Positions 4,641-62,723 of a DNA stretch of 64,000 bases are shown piece after piece. The stretch is taken from the NCBI GenBank assembly GCA_913051775.1, contig CAJXCL010000002.1:18307-82306 (forward strand), given 5' to 3'. The position numbers and the translations under genes are program-made. Below the pieces are notes generated by a model. It had not been told where the DNA came from. It ran no database searches and worked only from the letters and a program-made list of their open reading frames with translations. Source of the stretch: an uncultured Nitrospirota bacterium (lineage in GTDB: Bacteria; Nitrospinota; Nitrospinia; CAJXCL01). How positions within the stretch are numbered: the stretch's first letter is position 1; the number at the start of each line of letters is the position of its first letter.

Positions 4641-4765
4641 CTGTATTTGATTTCGGCAGAGCTTAGCTCAAAGCCAAGCTTAGCTTCGTAGCTCTGCCAT
4701 CCTCGGCCTCAATCCTTCGGGTGGCTTTCCTGCAAAATTGCGGTTGTGGTCCTGCCACTCTGCGA
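4641..4765 (+). repeat. REP-like structured intergenic element, family A, copy A
   Basis: Shared blocks atttgatttcgg, cctcaa(c/t)ccttcggg(c/t)gg (a CCC-UUCG-GGG hairpin), aattg(c/t)gg and ctctgcg. Located between leuA and the ammonia-lyase gene. Confidence 0.7.
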
Positions 4766-4889
4766 TATCAGCGCTCTTTGCGGTGGTTAATATCGACTCT
4801 TTTATCAAATCTTCCAAAGGCTTTCTCTCCGGATTTATGATAAAATTTAATCAGATTACCATCTTTTATTGTTCAGCCGGGAACATGCC

Positions 4890-6404
4890 ATGACTGAAAA
4901 ATTTCAATATGGTCTGGATCAACTGACCATCACTAAAGCGCTTCAAATTGCAAGGGATGAACTGCAGGGAATTCTAACAGATAAAGCCATATCCAATGTA
5001 TCCAAAAGTTATGATGCGGTTCAAAAAATCGCTGAAGGAGAAAAACTTGTCTATGGCATCAATACCGGACTTGGGTCTTTATGTACCAGGAAAATTTCTA
5101 AAAAAGATATCAGAACACTCCAGGAAAACCTGTTAAAAAGTCATAGTGTCGGGGTGGGAGAACCTGTTGCAAATGAACTCGCAAAACTAATGCTGATCCT
5201 GAAAGTTCATACTCTCTGCTTTGGCTATTCAGGAATTTCTCTGAAAGTCGTCGAAAGAATCTGCTGGCATCTTGAACACAACTGTATCCCTCCGGTTCCC
5301 GCCCAGGGTTCCGTTGGGGCTTCAGGTGACCTGGCTCCTTTAGCCCACCTTTTTCTCCCTTTGATTGGCTTAGGTATGCTCTCTGAAGACAGCAAAAGCT
5401 ATCGTCCCACTTCTGATGTTTTGAAAATGCATCAACTTTCACCTTTAAAACTGGGACCCAAGGAGGGGGTTGCTTTAATTAATGGAACCCAGTTTATTTC
5501 GGCACATGCGATTGCAGTTTCCGAAAAGTTTGCTCGTTGCCTGGATTATTCGGACCTTATTGGAGCACTCAGCCTGGAAGCCATGCTGGAATCTCATCAA
5601 CCCTTTGCTGAAAAACTCCATCAGCTTCGGCCTCACCCCGGAGCACTAACCGTTGCCAAACGAATGAGAACCATCCTAAAAGGATCTCAGGTTGTTAAAT
5701 CACATGAACATTGCGGACGGGTTCAAGACCCATATTCGGTTCGGTGCATCCCCCAGGTGCATGGCGCCTCCAGGGACACTCTTCATCATCTTAATAAAAA
5801 ACTGGTGTGTGAACTTAACTCTGTTACCGATAATCCTGTTATCTTCAATGCTGAAGATACGATAAGTGGTGGAAATTTTCATGGTCAGCCTCTTGCCATG
5901 CCGTTGGACTACGCCAGCTTGGCAGCTTCAGAACTGGGCAGTATTTCCGAACGACGCACCTACCTTCTTCTTGGGGGAGATGCGGGTCTTCCAACATATC
6001 TGATAAAAGAGTCCGGGCTCAATTCAGGTTTTATGATTACCCAATACTGTGCTGCCGCCCTGGTCAGTGAAAATAAATCGAACTGTTTTCCAGCTAGTGC
6101 GGACAGTATTCCAACATCTATGGGGCAGGAGGATCACGTAAGCATGGGATCGATCAGTGGACGAAAAGCCCTGACCATTGTGAAGAACCTGGAGAAAATT
6201 CTTGCGATTGAACTATTATGCTCAGCTCAAGCTTTTGATTTTAGAAGACCGGTTCAATCCAGTGAAATCCTTGAAAGGTTTCACTCTTCAATCCGAAAAA
6301 AAATACCTCATTTAAAAGAAGATACAGTAATGTCCGACTATATTGAAACGGCAACGAAATTCATTTCAAATGATGATTTGCTGAAAGCAACTATGAAGAC
6401 TTGA
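4890..6404 (+). CDS. hutH: Histidine/aromatic amino-acid ammonia-lyase (MIO-dependent, HutH family)
   Basis: GSVGASGDLAPLAHL, containing the Ala-Ser-Gly triad that forms the MIO cofactor. About 505 aa, typical HAL length. ATG at 4890 is preferred over the upstream TTG at 4869. Confidence 0.7.
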   Translation: MTEKFQYGLDQLTITKALQIARDELQGILTDKAISNVSKSYDAVQKIAEGEKLVYGINTGLGSLCTRKISKKDIRTLQENLLKSHSVGVGEPVANELAKLMLILKVHTLCFGYSGISLKVVERICWHLEHNCIPPVPAQGSVGASGDLAPLAHLFLPLIGLGMLSEDSKSYRPTSDVLKMHQLSPLKLGPKEGVALINGTQFISAHAIAVSEKFARCLDYSDLIGALSLEAMLESHQPFAEKLHQLRPHPGALTVAKRMRTILKGSQVVKSHEHCGRVQDPYSVRCIPQVHGASRDTLHHLNKKLVCELNSVTDNPVIFNAEDTISGGNFHGQPLAMPLDYASLAASELGSISERRTYLLLGGDAGLPTYLIKESGLNSGFMITQYCAAALVSENKSNCFPASADSIPTSMGQEDHVSMGSISGRKALTIVKNLEKILAIELLCSAQAFDFRRPVQSSEILERFHSSIRKKIPHLKEDTVMSDYIETATKFISNDDLLKATMKT

Positions 6405-6545
6405 ATTCGCTGATTTTTACGGACAAACATAATTTTATCCGCTATAATCCACATCGTCCGTAAGATCTGTGTTATATCTTTTGGTTTGTAGGAGTAGTTG
6501 AGTTTCCTATTTTTTTCTGACATATGCTATCCTTAGTTTAAAAAC

Positions 6546-8805: not shown

Positions 8806-9561
8806 ATGGCAGTGGAACACGAAGCGGTAAATAAAGCAACAAAAACCAGCTTAGAGCTTCCTTCTTTCATGGATTTACTGGGGGACCTGCACCATGAAGT
8901 TTTTGGGATTTCCCTGCATCACTGGGTTCCTATTATTATGTCTTTGATAGTAGCGTCAATATTAGTGGCTGTCACGTATTACACTACTAAGGATTTAAAG
9001 AAAATTCCTCAAGGGATGCAGGCTTTCCTCGAAGTTGTTATAGAAGGAATGCAGGGTTTTTTTGGGGATATATTGGGATCCGGCGCTTCTGTTTTTTTAC
9101 CGTTTGTCGGCAGTCTTTTTATTTATATATATCTAATGAACATAATGGGCTTTATACCGTTCTTTCATGCCCCTACCAGCAGCCCAAATACAACAATTGC
9201 TCTCGCGGTGATTGTTTTTTTTATTACCCATTATGTTGGAATAACCAGAAATGGAGTTGTTGGATATCTAAAACATTTTGTGGGAGAACCTATATGGATG
9301 GCGCCCCTTCTTTTTCCCATTCATATTATAGGGGAATTAGCGCGGCCGCTTTCTCTTTCCATGAGACTTTTTGGGAATATTATGGGAGAAGATACAGCCA
9401 TTGCTATCTTAGTAGGGCTGGGAGTTTCATTATATTTTATACCTATCCAGTTTCCGATATTGCTGCTGGGCCTCTTGACAACTCTAATTCAGGCAGTAGT
9501 GTTTACAGTTCTGTCCAGCGTCTATATAGGAGGTGCTGTCGGTCATCATGATGAACATTAA
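8806..9561 (+). CDS. atpB: F-type ATP synthase Fo subunit a
   Basis: Contains LSLSMRLFGNIMGE with the essential Arg. Polytopic membrane protein. Confidence 0.9.
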   Translation: MAVEHEAVNKATKTSLELPSFMDLLGDLHHEVFGISLHHWVPIIMSLIVASILVAVTYYTTKDLKKIPQGMQAFLEVVIEGMQGFFGDILGSGASVFLPFVGSLFIYIYLMNIMGFIPFFHAPTSSPNTTIALAVIVFFITHYVGITRNGVVGYLKHFVGEPIWMAPLLFPIHIIGELARPLSLSMRLFGNIMGEDTAIAILVGLGVSLYFIPIQFPILLLGLLTTLIQAVVFTVLSSVYIGGAVGHHDEH

Positions 9562-9648
9562 ATCATTTGTCAAAGGTGAAGGGGAAAAAAGATTATTGTA
9601 GGAACTATTAACCAACAACTAAATAACTAATAAAAAGGAGGTGTTACT

Positions 9649-9912: not shown

Positions 9913-10167
9913 TTGGGAAAGCTTTCAGCCAAAACAGGGTAGAGACAGTGGCAGACGTTAGATGGCAAGTGTTAGTTTTTTTCTAATCCTTGAAACTATC
10001 AGTTTTTTTAACTTTGTTGTTTAGCGGCCTGAACTTTCACGACCATACAAGAAGTTATACTATTACACTGCAAAACTCGCTTTTTTTAGGCGCTGTTAGT
10101 TCTTGTTTTTTGCAGCACCTTATGCAAAACTTGAAAGTTTTTTCTCTTCTAAACCGGGGCGAAAGCC

Positions 10168-10295
10168 CTATTTGATTATCGGCAAAGCTGAGATTAGCTC
10201 TGCCAGCAGTGGCCTCAACCCTTTGGGTGGCTTTCCTTGGGGAACCGTCCAATTCGGTTTTCCTTACCGAATTGTGGATACGGCAGCTTGCCTCT
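10168..10295 (+). repeat. REP-like element family A, copy B, inside the atp operon between atpE and atpF
   Basis: tatttgatt…cctcaaccctttgggtgg…ccgtccaattcggttttccttaccgaattgtgg (caattcgg/ccgaattg 8-bp stem)…cggcagcttgcctc. Confidence 0.7.
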
Positions 10296-10312
10296 TTATG
10301 GAGTAAGATCAA

Positions 10313-14086: not shown

Positions 14087-15861
<1,775 letters not shown>

Positions 15862-15890: not shown

Positions 15891-16364
15891 ATGAACTTTG
15901 TTTTTACCTCAATAATAATGTTTGTTTTCTGGATACTCCTGTCAGGTGAGTTCCATTTTTTACTCATGCTCTCAGGTATTGTATTTAGCCTCTTTGTTGC
16001 GTACATATCTCATGACCTTTTGATCGGAAGCGATAATATTAGACTTTTCTCTACAAGGATGCTCAGATTCTGCAGATACGTGCCGTGGCTTGTCTGGCAG
16101 ATTTTGCTGGCTAATCTCGACTTGGTCTATCGCACCCTGCACCCGAAAATGCCGATAGACCCACAGGTTATCAGATTTGATACAGCTCTTAGGTCAGATA
16201 TAGGGATAACAGTTCTTGCCAACTCAATAACACTCACACCCGGTACAGTCACTATAGTGGCAAACCAGGATGGTGAATTCATTGTCCATGCCATAGCAAG
16301 GAAGCCTGCTAAAGATCTTCTGGCAGGCGAGATGCAGGCAAAGGTAAAGAGAGTAGAGGGATAA
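15891..16364 (+). CDS. mrpE: Mrp/Mnh cation:proton antiporter subunit E
   Basis: MnhE-type signature SITLTPGT plus N-terminal TM helices. Confidence 0.8.
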   Translation: MNFVFTSIIMFVFWILLSGEFHFLLMLSGIVFSLFVAYISHDLLIGSDNIRLFSTRMLRFCRYVPWLVWQILLANLDLVYRTLHPKMPIDPQVIRFDTALRSDIGITVLANSITLTPGTVTIVANQDGEFIVHAIARKPAKDLLAGEMQAKVKRVEG

Positions 16365-16367
16365 TCA

Positions 16368-16622
16368 ATGTTTGATGCAGTTGCAACTATTATTGTATTT
16401 GCAGCAATTTTAGTCCTGTACAGGGTTATTAAAGGACCCACGATTTATGACAGAGTGCTCGCTGCAAATGCGATAGGAACAAAAACTGTGGTGCTCATAG
16501 CACTTATAGGATTTATCTATGAGCGCCCACATTTTCTTGATATTGCATTGGTATATGCGCTTATAAACTTTATAGCAACTATAGCTATTCTTAAATATCA
16601 AGAAATGGGGAGACTGGACTGA
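16368..16622 (+). CDS. mrpF: Mrp/Mnh antiporter subunit F
   Basis: 84-aa membrane protein with the MnhF/PhaF pattern (…KGPTIYDRVLAANAIGT…). Confidence 0.75.
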   Translation: MFDAVATIIVFAAILVLYRVIKGPTIYDRVLAANAIGTKTVVLIALIGFIYERPHFLDIALVYALINFIATIAILKYQEMGRLD

Positions 16623-16936
16623 TGGTAGTCACAACGATTATATCATACCTCTTTTTGGCAGTCGGTTGCTTTTTGATTGTGGTTGCATCAATTGGGATAA
16701 TCCGGTTCCCTGATGTTTATTCCAGAATACATCCTGCGGGCAAGTCTGACACCCTCGGACAGGCAATGATATTTATAGGATTGATGATTTATGAAGGGCT
16801 TTCTTTTGTAAGCATTAAGCTCTTAATAATTGTCATATTTATATTTATTACTAATCCGACAGCGACCCATGCTCTCGTAAATGCAGCACATGCGGCGGGT
16901 CTAAAGCCATGGGAAAAAGGTGATGACAGAAATTGA
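16622..16936 (+). CDS. mrpG: Mrp/Mnh antiporter subunit G
   Basis: About 100 aa with MnhG pattern (…IRFPDVYSRIHPAGKSDTLG…). Confidence 0.75.
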   Translation: MVVTTIISYLFLAVGCFLIVVASIGIIRFPDVYSRIHPAGKSDTLGQAMIFIGLMIYEGLSFVSIKLLIIVIFIFITNPTATHALVNAAHAAGLKPWEKGDDRN

Positions 16937-17058
16937 TCATTCGCCAATACCATATAGTTTCTAATGAGTAAATTTGAATTTGTTGAACTAAATTGTTTGT
17001 TAAGATTATTGTCACTAAAAGATGACTAATTTTAGTGGAAAAATGAAAAAGGAATGAA

Positions 17059-18090
17059 TTGATGATTGATTTGATGCTTCTTTTATTTCTTGTTGTGTGT
17101 GCTATTGCCGCAGTTTCCATGAAGGACTTGCTGAGTACAACCATTATCCTTGGAGTATATAGCTTAATAATGACTGTAGTATGGACAAGGCTGAATGCAG
17201 TAGATGTTGCCTTTACAGAGGCGTCTGTTGGGGCCGGTATTACAACAGTGTTAATAATAGCAGCATTGAGCAGAACAAAAAGGGAGGAAGAAGGTCAGGA
17301 ATATGGGATGTGGAGCAAGCTGTTGAATCCTCAAGACTTAAAGTTGACTGATAAACAGTCGCCACTTTTATGGTTGACATCCTTATTTATTGTACTAATA
17401 ACCGGAGCTGTATTGATATATGGCACCATTGATATGCCTGATTTTGGAGACCCAGATGCACCGGCGAATATTCATTTGGCTAAAAGGTTTATAGAAGAAT
17501 CCTATGAAGAAACAGGTGTACCTAATTTTGTTACCGCGATTCTTGCAAGCTATAGAGGATATGATACCCTCGGAGAGACTACTGTCATATTTACAGCAGG
17601 GATATCTTTGATATTGCTGTTAAGGAGAAAGAGCTATATCTGTGATACTACTATCAAAGAGAAAGAAATGAAGGAGCACATAGTTATAAGAACTATCTCC
17701 AGAATCCTGATCCCATTTGTGCAGCTTTATGCACTTTATGTTATTGCTCATGGTGAACTTAGCCCGGGCGGTGGGTTTCAAGGCGGAGTAATTTTTGGCT
17801 CAAGCATAATTCTTTATGTAATAGCCTTCGGTCTAGAGGAAGGAAGGAAGGTAAGAATTTTTCGAGAGATGGGCGACCTTTTAAATTCAACAGGCGTTTT
17901 AATATATGCAGGCATTGGGGTTCTCTGTTTATTGGCAGGGGGTGCATATCTCGAATACGATAAGCTCCCTCTGGGGTCAGAAAAAATGGCAAGTTCTTTA
18001 GGAATTTATGGCATTGAAATAGGTGTAGGGATTACAGTTGCTGCTGTAATGATAACCATATTCTTTATAACAGCAAGGCATGAAAGATGA
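17059..18090 (+). CDS. mrpB: MrpB-like subunit (DUF4040 N-domain fused to an MnhB domain)
   Basis: N-terminal DUF4040-like TM segment, then the MnhB core …YALYVIAHGELSPGGGFQGGVIFGSSI…. Architecture resembles the MbhD/E proteins of Mbh-type complexes. Confidence 0.7.
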   Translation: MMIDLMLLLFLVVCAIAAVSMKDLLSTTIILGVYSLIMTVVWTRLNAVDVAFTEASVGAGITTVLIIAALSRTKREEEGQEYGMWSKLLNPQDLKLTDKQSPLLWLTSLFIVLITGAVLIYGTIDMPDFGDPDAPANIHLAKRFIEESYEETGVPNFVTAILASYRGYDTLGETTVIFTAGISLILLLRRKSYICDTTIKEKEMKEHIVIRTISRILIPFVQLYALYVIAHGELSPGGGFQGGVIFGSSIILYVIAFGLEEGRKVRIFREMGDLLNSTGVLIYAGIGVLCLLAGGAYLEYDKLPLGSEKMASSLGIYGIEIGVGITVAAVMITIFFITARHER

Positions 18091-18515
18091 TTGAGCTCAT
18101 TTTAGGAAAATATAACTACTGGGTTTATATAACGCTTATGATGATAGGATTTTATGCAATGATTGAAAAAGAAAACCTGATTAAAAAAATCATTGGCATG
18201 AATATCTTTCAAACGGCAGTGTTTCTTTTTTACATATCTATTGCTAAGGTAAAAGGAGGAACTGCACCTATACTATGGGAAAAAGAAGGAATCCCGTACG
18301 ATAACCCCATTCCACATGTACTGATCCTTACCGCTATTGTTGTATCTGTGAGCACAACAGCAGTTGCCCTTGCCCTGATAATAAGGATATTTAAGGAATA
18401 CGGCACTATTGAAGAAGATAAAATCCTAATTATGAGTGAAGTGAGCGGCAAACAGGATTCGACAGAAAATTCCAAATTTTTATCTTCCACCTCCTTGCTT
18501 CAGAAGGGAGAATGA
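18087..18515 (+). CDS. mrpC: Mrp/Mnh antiporter subunit C (NuoK-like)
   Basis: Three-TM NuoK/MnhC-like protein (…NIFQTAVFLFYI…). Confidence 0.75.
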   Translation: MIELILGKYNYWVYITLMMIGFYAMIEKENLIKKIIGMNIFQTAVFLFYISIAKVKGGTAPILWEKEGIPYDNPIPHVLILTAIVVSVSTTAVALALIIRIFKEYGTIEEDKILIMSEVSGKQDSTENSKFLSSTSLLQKGE

Positions 18516-20047
18516 CTTTGACAGAAAGCCTTCCAATCCTGGTCATCATTATACCTTTAATATCAGCAATTATAATTCCTCTCATCGGAAGGATTGATAA
18601 GTCAATTGCCTTTGCTTTCGTCATATCTGCAAATTTTTTGTCCTTTATCATCTCAATTTCTCTTTTAAATACTGTCATGGAAACCGGCAGAATCAGTTAT
18701 TGGCTTGGCGGCTGGGAGCCTCCATGGGGTATAGAGTATGTGGTTGATTATCTAAGTGGCTTTGTACTCGTCATTGTTTCATTCATTGCTTTTATTATAT
18801 CAGTATACGCAAAAAAGAGTGTTGAGATGGAGGTTGAAGGGGAAAAAATACTCCCCTTTTACTCAATATACATGTTACTAGTTACAGGGTTTATGGGGAT
18901 GATCATAACCGGAGATATATTTAATCTTTATGTGTTTATTGAAATATCAGCTCTTGCTGGTTATGCCCTGATTGCCATAGGGAAAAAGAGAGCTGCTCTT
19001 ATAGCTAGTTATAACTATCTTGTGTTAGGCACAATAGGAGCCACATTTATCCTCCTTGGTATCGGCTACCTTTACATGGCTACCGGCACTTTGAATATGG
19101 CAGATTTGAGAGAGCGGCTGCCTATGCTTTATGACTCAAAGGTTGTGCTAACTGCCTTTGCATTTATAACGGTTGGGCTGAGCCTGAAACTCGCCCTTTT
19201 CCCGTTTCATATTTGGTTACCAAACGTATACAATCATGCTCCATCGGTTGTGTCCGCTTTAATGGCAGCAACTTCCGCAAAGGTTATTGCTTATGTTCTT
19301 GTGCGGATAATGTTTTCTGTATTTACGATGAAGTTTGATCTGGAGGTTGTGCCTGTTACAAAGATACTCCTCTTCCTTTCCGTCATTGCAATTATTGCCG
19401 GCTCTGTTCTTGCTATTGCCCAGACTAATATAAAACGGATGCTGGCATACTCCAGTATTGGGCAGATCGGATACATCGTCCTTGGCATTGCCATTTCAAA
19501 TCAACTATCCATGACCGGAAGCCTTATCCATTTACTAAACCACGCCCTGATGAAAGGAACCTTATTTCTTGTAGTCGGTGCTGTTGTTTACAAAACAGGC
19601 ATGGAAGATATATCGAGTCTCAAAGGTATGGGTAAAAAGATGCCTTTTACTATGGCTGCCTTTACAATTGGAGCGCTTTCGATGATCGGTGTTCCCCTTA
19701 CCGTTGGTTTTGTTAGCAAGTGGTATCTTGCCCTTGGCGCCCTGAAGGCCGGTATGTGGTTCTTGGTTTTCATAATCCTTGTAAGCTCTCTCCTTAATGC
19801 GGTGTATTTCTGGAGGGTTATTGAGGGGATATACTTTCATCAGAAGCCAAAAGTCAGAAGTCAGAAGTCAACAACTAAGGATTCAATCGAAAGCCTGAAA
19901 CCCGAAATCCAAAATCAAGACGATGCTCCTGTGGGTATGCTTATCCCGACGCTTATCCTTGCCGGTCTCTGTATAGTTTTTGGTATTGCTGCTTTTATAC
20001 CTGTATCTGTGGTAACACCAATTGTAAACATGCTTCTGGAGGTGTGA
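18512..20047 (+). CDS. mrpD: Mrp antiporter subunit D (NuoN/NuoM-like proton-pumping subunit)
   Basis: A 14-TM antiporter-like fold with the conserved region …LLNHALMKGTLFLVVGAVVYKTG…MPFT…. Confidence 0.8.
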   Translation: MTLTESLPILVIIIPLISAIIIPLIGRIDKSIAFAFVISANFLSFIISISLLNTVMETGRISYWLGGWEPPWGIEYVVDYLSGFVLVIVSFIAFIISVYAKKSVEMEVEGEKILPFYSIYMLLVTGFMGMIITGDIFNLYVFIEISALAGYALIAIGKKRAALIASYNYLVLGTIGATFILLGIGYLYMATGTLNMADLRERLPMLYDSKVVLTAFAFITVGLSLKLALFPFHIWLPNVYNHAPSVVSALMAATSAKVIAYVLVRIMFSVFTMKFDLEVVPVTKILLFLSVIAIIAGSVLAIAQTNIKRMLAYSSIGQIGYIVLGIAISNQLSMTGSLIHLLNHALMKGTLFLVVGAVVYKTGMEDISSLKGMGKKMPFTMAAFTIGALSMIGVPLTVGFVSKWYLALGALKAGMWFLVFIILVSSLLNAVYFWRVIEGIYFHQKPKVRSQKSTTKDSIESLKPEIQNQDDAPVGMLIPTLILAGLCIVFGIAAFIPVSVVTPIVNMLLEV

Positions 20048-20051
20048 ATTA

Positions 20052-21554
20052 GTGGAAATAATACAATCAGCACAGCCGCTTTATACCGTAGCCGTTTCTC
20101 TTTTAGCGATTATTCTTATCGGCTTGTCTGGTAATAAAGACCCTAACTTGAGAGAATCTTGGACAATCTTGGCAGCAATAATAAAGTTCTTTATGGTTGT
20201 TTCTATGATTCCACAAATCCTTGATAGTAAAGTAATTGAATATTCTCTCATCACGCTCCTACCGGGACTTGAAATAAAATTCAGAGTCGATGCCCTTGCC
20301 CTTACCTTTGCCACCACCGCTTCTTTTCTTTGGATTATCACATCGTTTTATTCTATTGGATATATGAGGACATTAAAGGAACATGCGCAGACTAGATATT
20401 TTATGTGCTTTGCCGGAGCAATGGCAGGAGCCATTGGCGTAGCCTTTTCTGCAAACCTGTTTACCCTTTTTCTCTTTTACGAAACTATCACCTTTTGCAC
20501 ATTCCCTCTTGTTGCCCATAGTGAAAAACCCGATGCCATAAAAGGTGCCAGAAAATATATTGTTTATCTACTGGGCACATCTTTAGCTTTTCAGTTATTT
20601 GCCATATTTCTTACATATAATGTTGCGGGAACTCTCGAATTTTCTAATCAGGGTATTCTGGCTGGAAAAGCTTCCAATGCACTGTTGACTGTAATATTTA
20701 TACTTTTCATTGCCGGGGTCGGAAAAGCCGCTATGATGCCACTTCACGCTTGGCTTCCTGCTGCCATGGTTGCTCCTGGGCCTGTAAGCGCCCTCTTACA
20801 TGCAGTGGCAGTAGTGAAGGTAGGAGTCTTTACAGTCGTAAAGGTGATACTTCATGTATTCGGAATTGACCTGCTCTCTCAACTTGGTCTCGGCACGTGC
20901 CTTGCTTATTTTGCTTCTTTTACTATAATAGTTGCATCCGTTATAGCGTTAAGACAGGATAATTTAAAAGCATGTCTTGCATATTCAACTATTAGCCAGC
21001 TATCTTATATCGTACTTGGTGTTGCACTCCTTGCTCCGTCCGGAATTACAGGGAGCATCTTGCACATAACAATGCATGCATTTGCAAAGATAACCCTGTT
21101 TTTTACAGCAGGAACAATTTATTTAGTTACTCATAAGACAAGGATAAGCGAGCTTGCCGGAATAGGAAAACAGATGCCATTTACAATGTCGGCCTTTGCA
21201 GTGGCCTCACTTTCTATGATAGGTATCCCCCCTCTCGGTGGTTTTTTGAGCAAGTGGTTTTTAGCTATTGGATCTATAGAGGCGAAGCAAATACCAATTA
21301 TTATTGTGTTGGCGACAAGCTCAATTCTTAATGCATCTTATTTTCTGCCAATAGTACATGCAGCATTCTTTAAAGAACCTCATTATGCTAAGCACCAGTC
21401 CCCTAAGCCAAAACAAAACATGCTTGAGGCCCCTGCCCTTGTGCTGATACCGCTTATGATTACTGCTATAGGGACGTTGGTATTGTTTCTATGGCCGTCG
21501 TTGTTTCTTGACCTTGCAAGGATCGTTGTTGCAGGTGTTACAGGAGAGAATTAA
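20052..21554 (+). CDS. Second NuoL/M/N-like antiporter subunit (MrpD/MrpA-like)
   Basis: Same fold as the preceding mrpD (…LHAVAVVKVGVF…MHAFAKITLFFTAGT…MPFTM…). Confidence 0.75.
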   Translation: MEIIQSAQPLYTVAVSLLAIILIGLSGNKDPNLRESWTILAAIIKFFMVVSMIPQILDSKVIEYSLITLLPGLEIKFRVDALALTFATTASFLWIITSFYSIGYMRTLKEHAQTRYFMCFAGAMAGAIGVAFSANLFTLFLFYETITFCTFPLVAHSEKPDAIKGARKYIVYLLGTSLAFQLFAIFLTYNVAGTLEFSNQGILAGKASNALLTVIFILFIAGVGKAAMMPLHAWLPAAMVAPGPVSALLHAVAVVKVGVFTVVKVILHVFGIDLLSQLGLGTCLAYFASFTIIVASVIALRQDNLKACLAYSTISQLSYIVLGVALLAPSGITGSILHITMHAFAKITLFFTAGTIYLVTHKTRISELAGIGKQMPFTMSAFAVASLSMIGIPPLGGFLSKWFLAIGSIEAKQIPIIIVLATSSILNASYFLPIVHAAFFKEPHYAKHQSPKPKQNMLEAPALVLIPLMITAIGTLVLFLWPSLFLDLARIVVAGVTGEN

Positions 21555-21558
21555 AAAG

Positions 21559-21801
21559 ATGAAAAAAGAGATAGAGTTCTTTGATAAACCCAAAAACATA
21601 AAAATAATGCGCAGGGTATTCCACCTATCTCTTGTCGTGCTTATTGCCTTAGATTTTTTTATCTCAAAACACCCCCAATTCTCCATGGAAGGAATCCCGG
21701 GATTCTATGCCACGTACGGGTTTATTGCATGTGCTTTGATCATTGCCGTATCAAAGGCCCTGGGACTTTGGCTTAAAAAGAAAGAGGATTATTATGACTA
21801 A
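21559..21801 (+). CDS. Small two-TM membrane protein inside the Mrp cluster
   Basis: 81 aa. RBS ggagag precedes the ATG at 21559. Its end overlaps the next gene by 8 nt. No recognisable family. Confidence 0.45.
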   Translation: MKKEIEFFDKPKNIKIMRRVFHLSLVVLIALDFFISKHPQFSMEGIPGFYATYGFIACALIIAVSKALGLWLKKKEDYYD

Positions 21802-23575
21802 CTGGATTCCTCCGGCAGCTATATTTATTTTTGGGGCATGCATTATCCCATTTCTAACAGGAAAGGCAAAGCAGGTCTATTTACTTCTACTTCCTGTTCT
21901 TGCTTTTATAAACCTTCTTAACATGCCTGAGGGTACAGACTGGGTATTTAATTTTCTTGGCTATGAAGTTATCTTTGGCAAGGTTGATAAACTGAGCAAG
22001 GTCTTCGGTTATATCTTTGTAATAATGGCATTTGGAGGGGCACTATTCTCTCTCCATTTAAAAGAGCAGCAAGAATCTGTGGCTGGATTTCTTTATGCCG
22101 GCGGCTCTCTCGGGGTTGTATTTGCAGGAGACTTCCTTTCTCTCTTTATCTTCTGGGAAATTATGTCAGTTTCATCAACTTACATCGTCTGGAGCCGAAG
22201 AACAAAGGCAGCCCAAGATGCGGGGTTAAGATATATCCTTGTGCATCTATTGGGTGGACTGTTCCTTTTATTCGGCATAATCATAAACGCATCTAATTCG
22301 GGCTCTATCGAGTTTGGTTTTATAGAATTAAATGGATTAGCGTCTTATCTTATACTGATTGGTTTTGCCGTGAATGCTGCCATTCCTCCTCTGTCTGCAT
22401 GGCTCTCCGATTCCTATCCTGAGTCAACAGTAACAGGAGCTGTATTCCTGAGTGCCTTTACAACCAAGACTGCAGTGTATGTCCTGTGCAGGGCGTTTCC
22501 AGGCGCAGAAATTTTGATATGGGCAGGGGCATTGATGACGATATACGGCATTATATATGCCATCTTAGAGAATGATATGAGGCGGGTTTTGGCATATAGC
22601 ATTATTAACCAGGTTGGATTTATGGTGGCAGGAATTGGAATAGGCACGGAACTATCAATCAATGGTACTGCCTCACACGCCTTTGCACATATCCTCTATA
22701 AGGCTTTGCTTTTCATGTCTGCCGGAGCGGTACTGTATAGGACAGGTAAAAGCAAGTGCACAGACCTAGGTGGGCTGTATAAGACAATGCCTGTAACCCT
22801 TATTTTTTGTCTTGTTGGTGCAGCCTCTATCTCAGCGTTTCCTCTAACCGGAGGATTTATAAGTAAATCAATGATAATTTCCGCATCAGGCCATGAGAAG
22901 ATGACAGTTATATGGTTGCTTCTCAACCTTGCATCAGCAGGGGTCTTCCTCCATGCAGGCATAAAATTCCCCTACTTTGTATTCTTTGCGAAGGACTCAG
23001 GTTTAAGGCCAAAGGAGCCGCCTTTAAACATGCTTCTTGCCATGGGCTTTTTTGCCTTTTTATGCATCTTTATCGGTGTATTTCCCGGGGTGCTTTACAG
23101 GATACTCCCATATCCTGTTGAATTTGTTCCTTACACTGCGAGTCATGTGATTAACCAACTCCAGATACTCTTATTCTCTGCCTTAGCGTTTTTTACACTC
23201 TTAAAATTTCTCCAGAGAACAGAAACGATAAGCCTCGATACCGACTGGTTTTATAGAAAAGGGTCCAGAGCCTTCTTGTGGTTTGTGGATAATCCAATGT
23301 CCAGATTTGGTCACCAGATGGGAAAGATTTTTTTCTATTATATCCTGGATTCCCTCATATGGTTTAGCAGAAACCCACTGGCAGTTCTCAAGATGGCTGC
23401 TGATACAATGTTCTTGTTGGTTAGCGATCCTGATCAAAGAATAGAAATAAAGAAACGAATAGAAAAAGAGAAGGAAATCTATCCGGGTGATATAATCAAA
23501 CACTGGCCTATAGGCTCAACAGTTCTGTACCTGACCTTCTTTCTCTTAACCTGTTTGTTGGTGTATTACTTGTAA
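21794..23575 (+). CDS. Third NuoL/M/N-like antiporter subunit with a C-terminal extension of about 120 aa
   Basis: RBS agagga precedes the ATG at 21794. Antiporter core (…HAFAHILYKALLFMSAGAV…) followed by an extra C-terminal TM region. Confidence 0.75.
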   Translation: MTNWIPPAAIFIFGACIIPFLTGKAKQVYLLLLPVLAFINLLNMPEGTDWVFNFLGYEVIFGKVDKLSKVFGYIFVIMAFGGALFSLHLKEQQESVAGFLYAGGSLGVVFAGDFLSLFIFWEIMSVSSTYIVWSRRTKAAQDAGLRYILVHLLGGLFLLFGIIINASNSGSIEFGFIELNGLASYLILIGFAVNAAIPPLSAWLSDSYPESTVTGAVFLSAFTTKTAVYVLCRAFPGAEILIWAGALMTIYGIIYAILENDMRRVLAYSIINQVGFMVAGIGIGTELSINGTASHAFAHILYKALLFMSAGAVLYRTGKSKCTDLGGLYKTMPVTLIFCLVGAASISAFPLTGGFISKSMIISASGHEKMTVIWLLLNLASAGVFLHAGIKFPYFVFFAKDSGLRPKEPPLNMLLAMGFFAFLCIFIGVFPGVLYRILPYPVEFVPYTASHVINQLQILLFSALAFFTLLKFLQRTETISLDTDWFYRKGSRAFLWFVDNPMSRFGHQMGKIFFYYILDSLIWFSRNPLAVLKMAADTMFLLVSDPDQRIEIKKRIEKEKEIYPGDIIKHWPIGSTVLYLTFFLLTCLLVYYL

Positions 23576-23622
23576 AGTAAAACTAAATCGTTCAATAATG
23601 TCTTCAGATTCTTTGAACAGGG

Positions 23623-23670
23623 GTGGGCGACATTGACGAAGTGCTTGAAAAAGCAAAGAAAATGAAGTAA
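23623..23670 (+). pseudogene. Remnant of the atpD 3' end, part of the duplicated segment
   Basis: ggtgggcgacattgacgaagtgcttgaaaaagcaaagaaaatgaagtaa encodes …[15 protein letters not shown]. The genuine atpD C-terminus is …[16 protein letters not shown]. Confidence 0.8.
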
Positions 23671-23745
23671 TAAAACCATGCGCTGTTTTCCCCCCTATCA
23701 AGAGGGGAAACAGGTGGTGTTAACTACATTACAGCTCAAAAAAAA

Positions 23746-24027
23746 ATGGCTGAAGAAAAAACATTCAAGTTGGAAATTATCACGCCTAACGAGGTGGTAT
23801 TAAGCAAGGATGTGTTGAGCATTACAGCTCCCGGAGCAGAAGGATCCTTTGGAATCCTTGCCAACCACGCACCTTTTATGACTTCCCTTGACAAAGGCGA
23901 ACTGAAAATCAAAGAACCCGGCCAGGTAAATCCTCTAATTATCGACATCAATAAAGGCTTTCTCGAAGTCTTAAACAACAAAGTTGTTGTCCTCGTCGAT
24001 AAAGTCAAAACCGAAGATCAAGAGTAG
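23746..24027 (+). CDS. Second ATP synthase epsilon paralog, short, about 65% identical to atpC
   Basis: MAEEKTFKLEIITPNEVVLSKDVLSITAPGAEGSFGILANHAPF… It is preceded by the same upstream sequence and RBS as atpC. Confidence 0.8.
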   Translation: MAEEKTFKLEIITPNEVVLSKDVLSITAPGAEGSFGILANHAPFMTSLDKGELKIKEPGQVNPLIIDINKGFLEVLNNKVVVLVDKVKTEDQE

Positions 24028-25098: not shown

Positions 25099-27258
25099 AT
25101 GACAGTTGGTGGTGGTTTTAAAGCGATTAAGTATTCTCTAAAAGTTGCACGTGCAGCAGGGTTCCGAAAGATACTGCAGGCTAGTTTGTCTAAAAATACC
25201 TGTAAATCCTGTGCGTTGGGCATGGGAGGCCAAAAAGGGGGAATGGTCAACGAAACGGGGAATTTTCCAGAAATTTGTAAAAAAAATTTTCAGGCCCAAA
25301 TCACAGATATTCAGCCCTCCATTTCAGAGAAGCTATTTCAAAAAAAAAGCATCGAGGATTTGAAAAAGACTCCGACTCGATTATTGGAGCGAAGCGGACG
25401 GCTCAATACCCCCCTCTATAAAGATAAAGGCGATTCTCATTATTCCACGATTTCCTGGGAGCAGGCATTAGAAAGAATCGCAAATCAATTCAAAGCGACT
25501 CTTCCTGAACGAACCTTTTTTTATAGTTCCGGGCGTTCTTCCAATGAAGCCGCGTTTTTACTACAACTCTTTGCGCGCATTTACGGTACCAATAACATTA
25601 ACAATTGTTCTTACTATTGTCATCAGGCATCCGGGGTAGGAATCGGTTCGACGATAGGAACAGGGTCAGCAACGATTCAACTGCAAGACCTAGAAAAAGC
25701 TGATTTAATTTTTGTCATTGGAGCCAATCCAGCCTCAAACCACCCCCGATTTATTCGTCAACTGCTCAATTGTCGTCGACGCGGGGGGCATGTCATTGTT
25801 ATCAACCCCGCCAAAGAAAAAGGACTGGTGAAATTTGCGATTCCTTCGGATGTCAGATCAATGTCTGTGGGAGGGAGTCCGATTGCTTCTGAATACATTC
25901 AGATTCATATTGGAGGGGACATTGCGTTACTCAAAGGGATTGCAAAAGCCGTGCTTGAGACGGGAAAGCACGATCTTCGTTTTATGGAGGATCATACTCA
26001 TGGGAAGCAAGGCTATATAGCGGATCTTCAAGAGACCCCTTGGGAAATGATCGTTTTGTATTCTGGTATTTCTAAACAGCGCATCCAGCAAATCGCCGAG
26101 ATTTACGGAAATTCCAGAAACGTCATATTTTCCTGGGCAATGGGAATCACGCATCATGAACATGGGGTGGAGAATGTTGAATCGATTGTCAATCTTGCAC
26201 TGTTGCGTGGAATGGTCGGCAGGCGTTTCGCCGGATTGCTTCCCTTAAGAGGCCATAGCAATGTTCAGGGGGTTGGATCCGTTGGCGCAACACCGGTCTT
26301 GAAAGATAAGATTTTTAAAAATATAGAGAAGCACCTGGGGGTTCAACTTCTGACTACTCCTGGAATGGACACCATGTCTTGCATGAAGGCTTCCTACAAC
26401 GGAAAAATCGATTTGGCCTTTTTACTGGGGGGAAACCTGTATAATGCCAACCCTGATACACAGTTTACGGAGAAGTCTTTAAACGCTATTCCTTTAAAGA
26501 TTTTTTTAAACACCACGCTCAACCAAGGGCACTTTTGTGGAGTGGAACGAGAAGTCTTGATTCTTCCGGTAGCTGCTCGGGATGAGGAACGCCAGAAAAC
26601 AACCCAAGAGTCCATGTTTAATTTTGTTCGGATGAGTGATGGCGGAATTGTTCGACTTGATAACGTGCGCTCGGAAGTTGAGATCATTAGTAGTATTGCT
26701 CAAAAAGTTTTGGTGGATAGCCCCATTGAATTTGGAAAATTAAAACGTCATCAAAATCTGAGAAAAGCCATCGCACAAACGGTTCCCGGGTTTGAAAAAA
26801 TGAGCGAAATGGACGAAACTCAGAAAGAGTTCCATATTTCCGGTAGGACATTTCATCAAGCCCGCTTTGCAACTCCAGACCACAAAGCAAATTTTAGAAT
26901 ATGCTCAATTCCTTCATTGAAAGGAGAAGAAGGAGATTTTCGAATGATGACGGTTAGAAGTGAAGGGCAGTTTAATTCCATTATATATGAAGAAGAAGAT
27001 ATTTACAGGGAGCAAACAAGTCGCCGGGTGGTGCTGATGAATAAGGATGATATTCAAAATAAGGGATTACAAGAAAATGATCTCGTCACTTTAGAATCTT
27101 CCGTAGGAAAAATGGAACGGGTTATGGTGCGTGAATTTGATATTCCTTGTGGTAACGTCATGACCTATTATCCAGAATCCAATGTTTTAGTGCCAACCAC
27201 GACCGATCCAAGAAGTCTAACTCCTGCATTCAAATTGGTTTGGGTGAAAATTTTATAA
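25099..27258 (+). CDS. ydeP: YdeP-family (FdhF-like) molybdopterin oxidoreductase alpha subunit
   Basis: Aligns closely with E. coli YdeP. Matching segments include FYSSGRSSNEAAFLLQLFARIYGTNNINNCSYYCHQASGVGIGSTIGTGSAT, NPASNHPRF, AMGITHHEHGVENV and LRGHSNVQG, plus an N-terminal Cys cluster. Confidence 0.9.
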   Translation: MTVGGGFKAIKYSLKVARAAGFRKILQASLSKNTCKSCALGMGGQKGGMVNETGNFPEICKKNFQAQITDIQPSISEKLFQKKSIEDLKKTPTRLLERSGRLNTPLYKDKGDSHYSTISWEQALERIANQFKATLPERTFFYSSGRSSNEAAFLLQLFARIYGTNNINNCSYYCHQASGVGIGSTIGTGSATIQLQDLEKADLIFVIGANPASNHPRFIRQLLNCRRRGGHVIVINPAKEKGLVKFAIPSDVRSMSVGGSPIASEYIQIHIGGDIALLKGIAKAVLETGKHDLRFMEDHTHGKQGYIADLQETPWEMIVLYSGISKQRIQQIAEIYGNSRNVIFSWAMGITHHEHGVENVESIVNLALLRGMVGRRFAGLLPLRGHSNVQGVGSVGATPVLKDKIFKNIEKHLGVQLLTTPGMDTMSCMKASYNGKIDLAFLLGGNLYNANPDTQFTEKSLNAIPLKIFLNTTLNQGHFCGVEREVLILPVAARDEERQKTTQESMFNFVRMSDGGIVRLDNVRSEVEIISSIAQKVLVDSPIEFGKLKRHQNLRKAIAQTVPGFEKMSEMDETQKEFHISGRTFHQARFATPDHKANFRICSIPSLKGEEGDFRMMTVRSEGQFNSIIYEEEDIYREQTSRRVVLMNKDDIQNKGLQENDLVTLESSVGKMERVMVREFDIPCGNVMTYYPESNVLVPTTTDPRSLTPAFKLVWVKIL

Positions 27259-27364: not shown

Positions 27365-27428
27365 AGCTTCCGTTCCGGTGAGCAAAAAAAACTTGTTAAA
27401 AAAAACAAGCTTTTACATAGTACTGGTA

Positions 27429-27497: not shown

Positions 27498-27548
27498 GTG
27501 CATTAGTCAGTAAAAGCGCTTACAAGCGGCCTTCCGGTTTTATCCTTA

Positions 27549-40893: not shown

Positions 40894-40984
40894 AACGGTT
40901 TTTTTTAAGCTTCTACACACTATTACTATGTAAAACTTACTTTTTATACAAGTTTTTTTTGTTTGCTCACCGGAGCGGTATTTC

Positions 40985-41090
40985 CATTTGATTTCGGCCT
41001 TCCATGGCCTCAACCCTTCGGGCGGATGGAAAAGACATCCGTCCAGTTCGGTTCTCCATGCCGAATTGTGGTTGCGGAGCCTCTCCGCTT
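40985..41090 (+). repeat. REP-like element family A, copy D, at the thiolase 5' end
   Basis: catttgatttcggccttccatggcctcaacccttcgggcgg…ccgtccagttcggttctccatgccgaattgtggttgcggagcctctccgc. Confidence 0.75.
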
Positions 41091-41123
41091 TATGATTTAT
41101 TCTCTCCAACTCTCCAGTCCATA

Positions 41124-42707: not shown

Positions 42708-42837
42708 TTTGACGGAATATTCAGGATAAACTGGATGTAGTCCTTTTTTAGGAGTGCATCACCTGAGGTGATGCAATATGCAATGTCCCAGACATTTCCT
42801 CCAAAAAAATCTTGTTAATCCTGTAATCGTGTCAAAA
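42708..42837. repeat. MITE-like element family B, between ispG and proS
   Basis: Left tttgacggaatattcaggataaac. Core perfect palindrome gcatcacctgaggtgatgc. Right cttgttaatcctgtaatcgtgtcaaaa is the reverse complement of tttgacacgattacaggattaacaag. Confidence 0.65.
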
Positions 42838-56678: not shown

Positions 56679-57698
<1,020 letters not shown>

Positions 57699-58732: not shown

Positions 58733-58832
58733 TTTTAGACAAGATTAACGGGATTAACAAGATAAACGCAATGACATAGTCATTGCACTCCGAAATAAAT
58801 CCAGTCTATCCTGTTCATCCCGTCAAAAAAAA
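58733..58832. repeat. MITE-like element family B, between tpiA and secG
   Basis: Left ttttagacaagattaacgggattaacaagataaac (three 9-mer units). Core palindrome gcaatgacatagtcattgc, almost identical to the 31047 copy. Right ccagtctatcctgttcatcccgtc plus an A-run. Confidence 0.65.
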
Positions 58833-60219: not shown

Positions 60220-60870
60220 AAAAACCTCCCCAACTTATAAATTTTATAATAGACATTAATCCTTATTTTTTTAAGGGTTAATAATATTAAGAATTCTGCG
60301 ACCTGTTGTAAAGCCATTGAAAAGTATTTTCAACCTTCTAAAATATTTCCATATTAACACTATGAAAAAATCATTAATTATCATTTTTCAAGAGGATGTA
60401 TAGGATAGGCCTGATTTATTACCCTGCATTACGCACAATAAAGTAAAAAGCTGATACGAAAATATGCAAAGAGCAAATTTCAGGCAAAGGATGTGGGCTT
60501 TTTGTCTGCTTTTACCTCGCCTAAGATAAGTTGCTTCTTCACGAAGCGTTAGCTAGACTCCAAAAATATAACGACAAGCCAGAAACTTAGAAGATATTTT
60601 TTGATAGTTTGTCCGAATCCTTCATTTTGGTTTACTAATCATGACATTCCAATTAAGCATCCTCATCCAATATCTTGCTGCTTTATCATACTTTGAAAAA
60701 TGTACCCCATATCTACCTCATCAGGGAATATTTCGACAATATTTTTAATCTTAGATACAAAAAGTTTGAAAAGAAGAAGCTAATATTCTTATAATTCAGT
60801 ATGGTCGTCCCAATCTCAATTTTGGATAATCTGTTGTTGAACAATCTGCTGATTAAAGGAGGAGATTTCT

Positions 60871-62271
60871 ATGGAAACACTTGCCAAATGGAAAATAAGG
60901 ATTAAAGACCTCTTGGATTCAACGGAATATGATATTCCCGTTATCCTTAGAGGATGGGTCAAGACCCGGAGAGGCTCTAAAAAATTTTCTTTTGTTGAAG
61001 TTAATGATGGCTCCACTCTGCACAATATACAGGTAATTGCGGACTGCAATTTACCTAATTACTCCGACATAGAAAAACTTACAGCGGGATGCAGTATCCG
61101 GGTGGAGGGAAAACTGGTGAAATCTCCCGCCAAAGGACAGAATGTCGAAGTCCAGGCTGACAAGATATCTGTTTACGGATGGGCAGACCCTGAAAAATAT
61201 CCATTGCAGAAAAAAGCCACCAGCCGTGAATTTTTAAGACAGATTGCCCACCTGAGACCCCGCACTAAGACATTTGGAGCCGTTTTCCGGGTGAGAAATA
61301 TCCTGGCTTGTGCGGTCCATAAGTTTTTCCAGGACAGAGGTTTTGTTTATGTCCACACACCAATTATTACTTCCAGCGACTGTGAAGGAGGTGCAGAAAT
61401 GTTTCAGGTCTCAACGCTTGATTATGACAATCCACCTGTTAAAGACGGCATTGTTGATTTTTCACAGGATTTTTTTGGAAAATCGGCGAAGTTAACTGTA
61501 AGCGGTCAACTGGAAGGTGAACTTTTTGCCACTGCATTGATGGATATTTATACTTTTGGTCCGACCTTCAGAGCGGAGAATTCACAAACACCGAGACATC
61601 TTGCGGAATTCTGGATGGTTGAACCGGAAATGGCTTTCTGCGATTTTGAGGAAAATATAATCCTGGCAGAGGATTTTTTAAAATATATTTTGAATTATGT
61701 GTTGGAAAATTGTGAAGAAGATCTGCTTTTTCTTGGGAAAAGAAATGAGGTTGATGTTTTAAAACAGTTAAAAAAGGTTGTGGATTCCCAGTTTAATAAA
61801 ATTACTTATACTGAGGCTGTAGAGTTGTTGAAAAATTCAGGCAAATCTTTTGAATATCCGGCCGACTGGGGCAAGGATTTGCAAACGGAACATGAAAAAT
61901 ATTTAGCCGAGGAAAAATTTCACGGACCTGTGGTTGTTACCGATTTCCCAAAAGAGATAAAGGCATTTTATATGAGACTGAATGATGACGAAAAGACTAT
62001 GCGGGCTATGGACATATTGCTCCCGGGAATAGGTGAGATCATAGGAGGCAGTCAGCGTGAAGAAAGGCTGGATTTTTTACAAGATAGAATAAAAGAAATG
62101 GGATTTAATGAAGACGATTATTGGTGGTATTTAGACATCCGCAGATTCGGGACGGTTCCCCACGCCGGGTTTGGCGTTGGTTTTGAGAGAGTGCTCCAAT
62201 TCGTTACTGGTATGAGCAACATTAGGGATGTGATCCCGTTTCCCAGGGTTCCAAATAACGCAGAATTTTAA
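60871..62271 (+). CDS. asnS: Asparaginyl-tRNA synthetase
   Basis: Class IIb motifs [24 protein letters not shown] and [15 protein letters not shown] aaaggagg upstream. Confidence 0.9.
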
Positions 62272-62683
62272 AGCAAAGTTTTGTGGATTACTTTTTTAGC
62301 CACTAAGACACAGAGGTGCGAAGAATTATTATATAAAATTTCTTACTTTTCGTGTTCTTCGTATTACTAACCTGGGAAACGTTCTTTTTTTAGCAACGTT
62401 TTTGGCAAACTATTAGAATATAAAATGGAATATCGAAACCAGAAATTCGAAGTAATATCGAAATTCAAATTTCTAAAATTCAAAACAACCTGACCATGCC
62501 TTGTTTGGATGGAAAGCTTTTGAGTCTTGAGCATTAGAAATTTTGTTATTCGAATTTGTTTCGAATTCAAGCCTTTACTTGATTTCTTCATTGGGCGAAT
62601 CTTGGTCGATTTTTACCAAAATTTCGATATTCGAATTTCGGATTTTTGAGAAAGGATTTAGAAAATTAACATTTTATTTAGTG

Positions 62684-62723
62684 CCTATTGTGGTTGCGGC
62701 TCTGCTGGGCTATGTAATCTGCG
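62684..62723 (+). repeat. Partial (3' half only) REP-like family A copy upstream of tilS
   Basis: cctattgtggttgcggctctgctgggctatgtaatctgcg matches the gaattgtggttgcgg…ctctgcg 3' block of the other copies. Confidence 0.5.

Follow-up and report, generated by a model that had tools for sequence, protein, structure and literature searches.

The window analysed here, a 64,000-nucleotide (nt) stretch of contig CAJXCL010000002.1 from an uncultured bacterium assigned to the Nitrospinota, contains a family of intergenic repeats that is previously undescribed and ordinary in kind, namely a non-autonomous, mosaic, hairpin-rich mobile element. Its copies are inserted DNA, polymorphic between lineages, and its conserved core is a separable module, which is found alone, in tandem or absent. 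We consider it very probable that the family is a mobile repeat, lineage-specific to marine Nitrospinota. An annotation made from the letters of the window alone (the sequence-only reading) had reported six copies of a structured "family A" and had offered two readings of it. The first, a family of repetitive extragenic palindromic (REP) sequences or MITEs (miniature inverted-repeat transposable elements), is right in kind, as the repeats are interspersed, insertionally polymorphic and non-coding; however, they are neither canonical MITEs nor canonical REPs. The second, a small RNA or transcript-stabilising element, is unsupported as the primary nature of the family, given the lack of an Rfam match, the mixed orientation, the absence of a strand signal and the loss of the interior in relatives.

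The precise case of insertion came from look-ups of LipA homologues. In the relatives L210–L213 (LipA identity 79% and 71%; labels from L009 to L220 denote related Nitrospinota or marine metagenome loci compared with the window), lipA shares a 22-nt overlap with the aminotransferase gene, and in the window the same two genes are separated by a 257-nt insert. The empty site reads AATTCTTCAGC followed directly by GTTATAAG; the filled site of the window reads AATTTTTCTGC, then the insert, which runs from ACTGCAAG to CCGCTCTGC, and then GTTATAAG, the point of insertion lying immediately after ...TTCTGC. The reported overlap of a copy with the lipA stop was borne out, for the last six lipA codons and the stop are element sequence, and the LipA tail ERQGR, with its stop, is the translated reverse complement of hairpin H4 and the end motif of the element. 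Other relatives also carry element-derived LipA tails (AERQGHN and AEQQGRNQR). In L219 (88% identity), the element at this site has shrunk to a scar of ~40 nt, and in L220 (76% identity), its interior has been replaced by other repeats; thus, the lipA insertion is old and the interior of the element is dispensable. The A/T-rich repeats that took the place of the old interior in L220 (2080–2380) lie within an inverted repeat, GAATGTCGAA...TTCGACATTC, and have TCGAATATCGAA-like units, as do A/T-rich repeats at 62420–62650 of the window.

The spacer between atpE and atpF is likewise polymorphic, and its states are as follows.

Window: 400 nt, element present
L214/L215 (AtpF identity to the window 72%): 178 nt, of which 14 nt are a remnant of the H3 loop
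L216 (AtpF identity 67%): 62 nt, native G+C hairpin only
L217/L218 (AtpF identity 54%): 45 nt

In L175 and L184, this site is filled as in the window. A flank-matching search for empty sites among the related loci gave only imprecise cases, because intergenic DNA diverges too fast.

The distribution of the family is narrow. By exact-protein look-up, the window belongs to Tara Oceans marine metagenome contigs. The core pattern, run against one genome per species, hit 120 loci, among which a hidden Markov model (HMM) of the copies recognised full-length relatives only in two Nitrospinota metagenome-assembled genomes (MAGs; six loci each) and in one uncultured-bacterium MAG, the remainder being chance 17-mers. 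A more specific two-block pattern yielded 88 marine metagenome loci; the copies amount to 127 in total and, after comparison of their flanks, to ~82 distinct insertion sites, while the viral contigs searched held zero copies. The 25 full-length copies from metagenome Ga0255058 share an average identity of 85%, which drops to 30% in the flanks. Nothing on such repeats, or on IS200/IS605 elements, was found in the literature on Nitrospina.

Within the window, a covariance model built from 65 related copies, a check of the kind that the sequence-only reading had proposed, was run with filters off and matched exactly five copies, no other hit having an E value below 0.2; relatives were also found beyond the window. 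The 18-mer CCTCAACCCTTCGGGCGG has five matches with up to three mismatches (0.00 expected), and the right-hand block CCGAATTGTGGTTGCGG has five (0.09 expected). Five full copies with ordered common blocks are therefore confirmed at the positions reported, whereas the count of six is not, as the window holds seven loci, two of them tentative:

40919–41094, plus strand: best-preserved full-length copy, between the divergent thiolase (minus) and ispG/gcpE (plus) genes; 142.5 bits, E = 1.4e-41
27255–27427, minus strand: full-length copy, in the convergent gap between a molybdopterin oxidoreductase gene (plus) and an SH3-domain gene (minus); E = 9.7e-34
10059–10299, plus strand: atp-operon copy, in sense between atpE (end 9912) and atpF (start 10313); E = 1.3e-31
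35919–36175, plus strand: copy of the TCTGC subfamily, between the aminotransferase gene (minus) and lipA (minus), antisense to both; E = 8.1e-31
4531–4763, plus strand: mosaic copy of the TCTGC subfamily, between the leuA-like (plus) and aromatic amino-acid lyase (plus) genes; E = 2.5e-9
2786–2888, minus strand: tentative decayed copy of the coreless short form, an LE hairpin and then ...TTTTTGGTTGCGGTTAT; E = 0.002 with the short-form HMM
62353–62714, plus strand: tentative, probably a decayed mosaic copy, upstream of tilS

Together, the seven loci make up 2.4% of the window sequence, and the well-preserved copies have a G+C content of 41–47% against 39% for the window. The boundaries given earlier were 60–140 nt too short, the true length of the element being ~175–260 nt. 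The shared orientation of five of the six reported copies stands, and becomes five of seven once the additional copy is counted. That copy, at 2786–2888, is absent from the sequence-only reading and lies just upstream of the leuA-like start. The reported sixth copy, a 3' fragment at 62684–62723, has no match to the core model and is probably the right end of the decayed mosaic locus, in which an LE-like hairpin (62353–62403) and a right-end fragment (62683–62714) are separated by unrelated A/T-rich repeats; the first 18 nt of the fragment are identical to the right end of the copy at L148:1441.

The individual copies differ in preservation and in their effects on the neighbouring genes. The 27255–27427 copy is 86% identical to that at 40919 (over 154 nt) and has the left flank ATTAT; it abuts the stop of the ydeP-like gene as had been described, this gene being that of the molybdopterin oxidoreductase, whose TAA (27256–27258) lies within the terminal TTTAT of the element. 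The placement of a copy between atpE and atpF agrees with the gene positions; this copy has the left flank GTTAT, an additional insert in its LE region and a 22-nt palindromic module at 10182–10203, and its right-end TTTAT adjoins the atpF Shine-Dalgarno sequence GGAG at 10300. The left half of the lipA copy is degenerate, and its exact extent was fixed by comparison with the empty sites. In the 4531–4763 copy, which has TCTGC both as left flank and as right end, H2 and H3 of the core are deleted and the small palindromic module is inserted twice. The N-terminal extension of the thiolase was also correctly recognised, since the Pfam thiolase domain begins at residue 77 of the 469-residue open reading frame (ORF).

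Alignment of distinct copies with long flanks revealed that conservation extends ~80 nt further left than reported. A canonical copy is ~195 nt long and consists, after a TTTAT-like flank, of RCTATTACACTG, an A/T-rich hairpin (LE) of the form AAAAAC-TTS...SAA-GTTTTT(T), GTTTGTTC, hairpin H0 (for example CCAGGGC-GGAA-GCCCT) and ATTTGATT; of a core of ~85 nt with hairpins H1, H2 (CTCAACCCTTCGGGCGG...CCGTCC) and H3 (CAATTCGG/CCGAATTG); and, right of the core, of TGTGGTT, hairpin H4 (for example GCGGCC-CCTT-GGCCGC, with many variants) and the terminal TTTAT, usually with G as the next base. LE, in which an A-tract is paired with a T-tract in the shape of a bidirectional intrinsic terminator, forms in most copies (mean z-score −2.45), and H0 and H4 with their T-rich tails were flagged as terminator-like. 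In the best-preserved copy of the window, these parts are placed as follows.

Immediately before the element, plus strand: left flank ...CTACAC
~40932–40957, plus strand: A/T-rich hairpin LE, followed by a T-run
~40972–40985, plus strand: hairpin H0
40986–40993, plus strand: ATTTGATT
40994–41073, plus strand: nested core, with H1 (GGCC/GGCC), H2 (GGGCGGATG/CATCCGTCC) and H3 (CAGTTCGG/CCGAATTG)
41074–41088, plus strand: H4 (GCGGAG-CCT-CTCCGC)
41089–41093, plus strand: terminal TTTAT, next base G

The separability of the core is observed directly. Twelve coreless short forms of ~95–100 nt read ...H0-TTTTGG joined to TTGCGG...H4-TTTAT. Conversely, bare cores, or cores with H4, have unrelated DNA left of TTGATT, TGTGATT or ATTGATT (L095, L040, L148, L140, L034) and terminate in TTGTGATT or TTGTGGTT, or, after H4, in TGTGAT. 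L080 holds two cores in tandem, and whole elements in tandem are joined at one single motif (...GCCGCTTTAT followed by ACTATTAC). As the core occurs alone, in tandem or not at all, and mosaic inserts are present, the "family A" described earlier corresponds to the inner module of an element that is both nested and mosaic: the core is real, and the modular build with its outer element had been overlooked. Two further modules were encountered at these sites. The 22-nt palindromic module GCAAAGCTGAGnTTAGCTCTGC, which sits inside elements, just after TTGATT or in the LE loop, occurs at 10182–10203 of the window, as variants at 4590–4611 and 4657–4697, and in related loci; its pattern matches 18 times across the 845 kb of Nitrospinota loci, and it probably constitutes a separate mini-repeat family. 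In L009, L129, L143, L148 and L177, a module reading ...AGTGyTTAGCGAGyGCATTC...GCTGCGG... takes the place of the core's right part, which suggests that further repeat families share these intergenic sites.

The ends of the element follow a rule, as 31 canonical copies show. Of these, 27 have TTTAT as their right 5-mer, and the left-flank 5-mer is TTTAT in 12, ATTAT in 6, TATAT in 4, TTAAT in 2 and other sequences in the remaining copies. Left and right 5-mers are identical in 9/31 copies, solely where both are consensus, and their agreement within copies is no better than between copies (p = 0.12). In the 19 copies whose left flank departs from the consensus, the right 5-mer is never the same as the left, and in 18 it is still TTTAT; thus, the right motif belongs to the element, and the left motif represents a favoured target. 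The same correspondence is found in other subfamilies, where a TCTGC flank is paired with a TCTGC end (window 4531–4763 and 35919–36175, and L139) and, in bare cores, a TGTGAT flank with a TGTGAT end. A target-site duplication of 4 bp or more, including one of 5 bp, was considered and is excluded by the mismatch of left and right 5-mers, whereas one of 2–3 bp (AT or TAT) is compatible with them. No terminal inverted repeats were found: ACTATTACACTG... and ...GGCCGCTTTAT are unrelated as inverted repeats, and ACTATTACACTGTAAAA... at one end is not the reverse complement of ...GCGGCCCCTTGGCCGCTTTAT at the other. The end motif also affects neighbouring genes, because ATAAA contains TAA and an insertion beside TTTAT that overlaps a stop codon on the opposite strand restores that stop, as at 27256–27258. 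Among 114 right ends, 26 have the stop of an ORF of 80 or more codons, read from the opposite strand, between −45 and +57 nt; in 5 of the 26, that stop is the TAA of the end motif itself.

These end data bear on two other kinds of transposition. Classical MITEs, i.e., deletion derivatives of insertion sequences that encode a DDE transposase and have terminal inverted repeats and a target-site duplication, would account for the small size, the high copy number, the intergenic location and the A/T-rich insertion sites, including TA. However, the ends are not inverted repeats, there is no duplication of at least 4 bp, and the target preference differs by subfamily and follows the element's own end, which is not expected from a shared DDE enzyme; this explanation is close to refuted, and we regard it as very improbable. 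A site-specific recombinase or a DEDD enzyme of the IS110 type would exchange a short core with a matching genomic site and leave it at both junctions, in keeping with four subfamilies in which left flank and right end have one and the same short motif, with the tandem copies that have a single common motif and with the lack of terminal inverted repeats. Targets of the IS110 type are longer and two-sided; here, by contrast, conservation covers only ~5 nt to one side of where insertion took place, the right flank being random. Moreover, a single copy often has different left and right motifs, which is a misfit with exchange in an identical overlap, and no gene for an enzyme of either kind came to light in the sequence examined, so that recombination of this kind appears quite unlikely.

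A target preference that tracks the element's own sequence, without inverted repeats or duplication, matches the scheme of IS200/IS605 elements. In these, a transposon-adjacent motif (TTTAT in ISGst2) is similar to a transposon-encoded motif, there is no target duplication, hairpins are subterminal, and gene-less derivatives, the palindrome-associated transposable elements (PATEs), occur (PMC10055086, PMC6006769). The family resembles PATEs in having neither terminal inverted repeats nor a target-site duplication of at least 4 bp, as the empty and filled lipA sites also show; in its insertion 3' of a TTTAT-like motif of 4–5 nt that resembles its own right end; and in its subterminal hairpins at both ends, its tandem joins at the motif and its size of 100–400 nt. 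It differs from them in the dissimilarity of its left and right hairpins, in that guide and motif were not found to covary at the IS608 position, in the lack of an identified tnpA/tnpB partner and in the second, nested module with a flank/end motif pair of its own. On balance, we favour the view that this is a non-autonomous, modular family of mobile DNA that is moved in trans, possibly by a Y1/HUH transposase. The Y1/HUH single-strand mechanism taken by itself is a tentative proposal, to which we give somewhat less than even weight. In such a scheme, copies would be made from single-stranded hairpin DNA and would be inserted 3' of a short motif recognised jointly with the element's own ends, and a Y1/HUH enzyme of the IS200/IS605 TnpA or REP-associated tyrosine transposase (RAYT) type would act in trans, in a PATE- or REP-like manner.

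The search for such an enzyme, together with several features of the element, weighs against this proposal. No autonomous partner element was detected in the 845 kb of Nitrospinota sequence examined, and tblastn with approximate IS200 and IS608 TnpA queries gave nothing below E = 1 in the related loci. Unpaired left ends were tried as marks of autonomous elements, and all proved to be coreless short forms or variants outside the search pattern. A six-frame scan for the HUH motif found one pseudogene of a RAYT-type Y1 transposase with one in-frame TGA (Pfam Y1_Tnp, E = 6.8e-8), located at L029 5398–5973 (the same in L153), 1.2 kb from an element copy in an element-bearing MAG; it adjoins a Phd/ParE toxin-antitoxin pair and an ORF of 1781 residues. 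The flanks of the pseudogene are without any element module, and the contigs of its closest intact relatives (73% and 68% identity) carry zero copies. The pseudogene demonstrates no more than the occurrence of this enzyme family in the lineage. As regards the element itself, IS608-type elements have similar left and right subterminal hairpins, whereas here LE is A/T-rich and H4 is G+C-rich. The four bases immediately 5' of H4, GGTT, are identical in the TTTAT and TCTGC subfamilies, and a guide in the style of IS608 at that position is thus not supported; the first bases of LE do vary with the motif (CTAT versus CTGC), as a direct repeat and in some subfamilies only. In addition, the 100-nt interior with its four conserved hairpins exceeds what a transposase requires of its ends, the 2–3-bp duplication compatible with the end data would be at odds with the scheme, and copies within a few kb of each other on the same short contig are often oppositely oriented, with no sign of a replication-strand bias as far as these data allow a judgement.

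One elaboration of the IS200/IS605 scheme would assign a function to this interior. According to it, the copies are PATE-type derivatives in which the interior and H4 form an omega-RNA-like scaffold, read towards the right end with flanking DNA as the guide, for a TnpB or IscB nuclease acting in trans. The left-flank TTTAT is a known target-adjacent motif of TnpB, and PATEs often encode omega RNAs (PMC10055086). Furthermore, the right boundary has ~130 nt of conserved structure immediately upstream of it, and one G.T pair is fixed on the strand in question. Nevertheless, no tnpB, iscB or tnpA gene turned up in the Nitrospinota sequence examined, coreless short forms have been dispersed too, no promoter was identified, and upstream there is the terminator-like hairpin LE; we therefore judge the elaboration improbable. 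A similarly low probability is given to a broader version, in which undescribed, nested, gene-less elements would be mobilised via single-stranded DNA, each module having its own target specificity, with the interior and H4 perhaps forming an omega-RNA-like scaffold. If the omega-RNA proposal were true, hundreds of copies per genome would be orphan guide-RNA genes for a TnpB/IscB-type nuclease in an abundant lineage of marine nitrite oxidisers.

The hairpins themselves are conserved as structures. A six-helix model was tested on 65 distinct copies against 500 shuffles and slid controls: 91.7% of the cells are paired, compared with 86.5% in the shuffles, and 104 cells are changed on both sides, compared with 38.6 (0/500 shuffles reach either value), while pairing in the slid controls is 31–53%. 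The compensatory-change check put forward earlier, with RNAalifold, thus came out in favour of the hairpins. Pair types in H0 are AU 29, GC 14 and UA 4, and AU 24 and GC 23; those in H1 are CG 36, GC 22 and AU 3; in H3, CGG/CCG is switched to TTA/TAA in three copies; and H4 has numerous stem variants. Unaided, RNAalifold picks H2 (GGGCGG...CCGTCC with an inner stem) and H3, and the GGGCGG/CCGTCC pairing has one compensatory change. Of the two hairpins originally described, the 8-bp stem caattcgg/ccgaattg is upheld by compensatory changes, whereas the CCC-UUCG-GGG hairpin is not part of the consensus fold and competes with H2 for its GGG; as this pairing never varies (192/194 cells are C-G), it is neither supported nor refuted by covariation. 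Apart from one fixed G.T in H2, G.T mismatches (58) are about as frequent as A.C mismatches (50), so that the pairing indicates no particular strand. The orientation of one representative per site relative to its neighbours, with genes called crudely from long ORFs, is as follows.

Antisense between co-directional genes: 26 sites
Sense between co-directional genes: 17 sites
Between divergent genes: 14 sites
Between convergent genes: 8 sites

Such a mixed orientation is at variance with an RNA element acting in cis.

A functional RNA as the primary nature of the family, be it a multi-copy small RNA or a cis-acting terminator or stabiliser in 3' untranslated or intercistronic regions (raising, for example, atpE over atpF) that was spread through its use by the host, has to be weighed against these data. 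The multi-hairpin fold with its compensatory changes, the UUCG and GNNA loop types, the A-tract/T-tract terminator shape of LE and the terminator-like H0 and H4 with T-rich tails would all suit it, as would the retention of the atpE-atpF copy in several lineages (the window, L175 and L184) and the 26/114 right ends that lie within ~45 nt of a stop codon. However, the comparison with Rfam that had been called for matched no family, either in the window at the gathering score or in three copy-rich related loci at E values up to 1; both orientations are common, no conserved promoter lies outside the element, and G.T and A.C show no strand asymmetry. Moreover, the interior at the lipA site is deleted in L219 or replaced in L220, the atp copy has decayed in L214/L215, truncated, mosaic and tandem variants abound, and one copy disrupts a coding end (lipA). 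The family is accordingly unlikely to be primarily a functional RNA, although individual copies, the atp copy above all, may have been put to use as terminators or stabilisers. An outward promoter made of TTGCGG in H4 and a −10 box in the flank was also considered and set aside, as the spacing is 13–14 or 20 nt and the flanks fit only occasionally. Taken as mobile DNA, the family has effects on its host (terminator- or stabiliser-like hairpins, new stops, C-terminal tails, the separation of overlapping genes) that look like by-products.

Among other known repeats, REPs and their composites, the bacterial interspersed mosaic elements (BIMEs; REPINs), share several traits with the family: imperfect, G+C-rich hairpins placed outside the genes of an A/T-rich genome; combination with further short modules into mosaics; a GTGG two nt from the foot of H4 in long forms; a RAYT-type pseudogene in one element-bearing MAG; and likely side effects on termination and mRNA stability. 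A published search rule for REPs demands a unit of 21–65 nt, with GT[AG]G 0–2 nt 5' of a hairpin that has a basal stem of 7–20 bp (PMC6006769). By contrast, the units here have a length of 175–260 nt and comprise five or six hairpins, H4 has a stem of 6 bp, and the short-form H4 is preceded by TTGG rather than GTGG. Furthermore, no inverted doublets exist among the ~82 sites, adjacent copies being in tandem, and no REPtron, i.e., a RAYT gene flanked by repeats, was seen. BOX of Streptococcus pneumoniae and ERIC/IRU of enterobacteria are modular intergenic repeats without a known transposase. The family is comparable to them in its conserved end modules with an optional, sometimes repeated interior (here a core that is absent, single or tandem), in its strong hairpin potential and in transcription within neighbouring mRNAs; it differs in sequence and host phylum, which are unrelated, and in its defined flank/end motif rule and terminator-like end hairpin.

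Several other repeats were observed alongside the family. Positions 15451–15828 and 23622–24003 of the window form a direct duplication, 75–86% identical, that covers the end of atpD and atpC, and two epsilon-subunit ORFs (15529–15861 and 23746–24027) bracket an mrp/mnh antiporter cluster at 15891–23575; the arrangement suggests that the end of the atp operon received this cluster by insertion. A 71-nt direct repeat (27428–27498 and 28429–28499, 93% identical) flanks the SH3-domain gene (27549–28199, minus strand), its first copy starting one base past the left end of the 27255–27427 element. The motif TTTAGACAGGATwACAGGATAAACAA is intergenic at 28978–29003, 31047–31072 and 32921–32946 and inverted at 37213–37249 and 42812–42837; it looks like a putative operator or binding site rather than a part of the repeat family. 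A stretch of 37 nt common to 31074–31110 and 58764–58800, the palindrome GCAATGACAnnGTCATTGC followed by a minus-strand T-run, was flagged as terminator-like. In L182 (~9500–9645, minus strand), a short-form copy is followed, after 20 nt, by a tRNA-like sequence, GGGGCAGTAGCTCAGATGGGAGAGCGC, and the TTGCGG of its H4 and the TATATA of its flank are spaced 18 nt apart, in a promoter-like arrangement.

The family matters first for annotation. Because they lack stop codons in some frames, the elements create false ORFs and N-terminal extensions, as in the thiolase, and they also supply genuine stops and C-terminal tails, as in LipA and the molybdopterin oxidoreductase; masking them would improve the gene calls of Nitrospinota MAGs. 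The insertions can also serve as dated markers, those at lipA and atp splitting lineages at ~70–80% protein identity. The correspondence of the flank motif with the element's own end motif at two levels of nesting offers a natural data set on single-strand target choice, once the enzyme has been identified. For the biology of the Nitrospinota, the family means that a selfish repeat continues to expand in marine genomes that are small and densely packed with genes.

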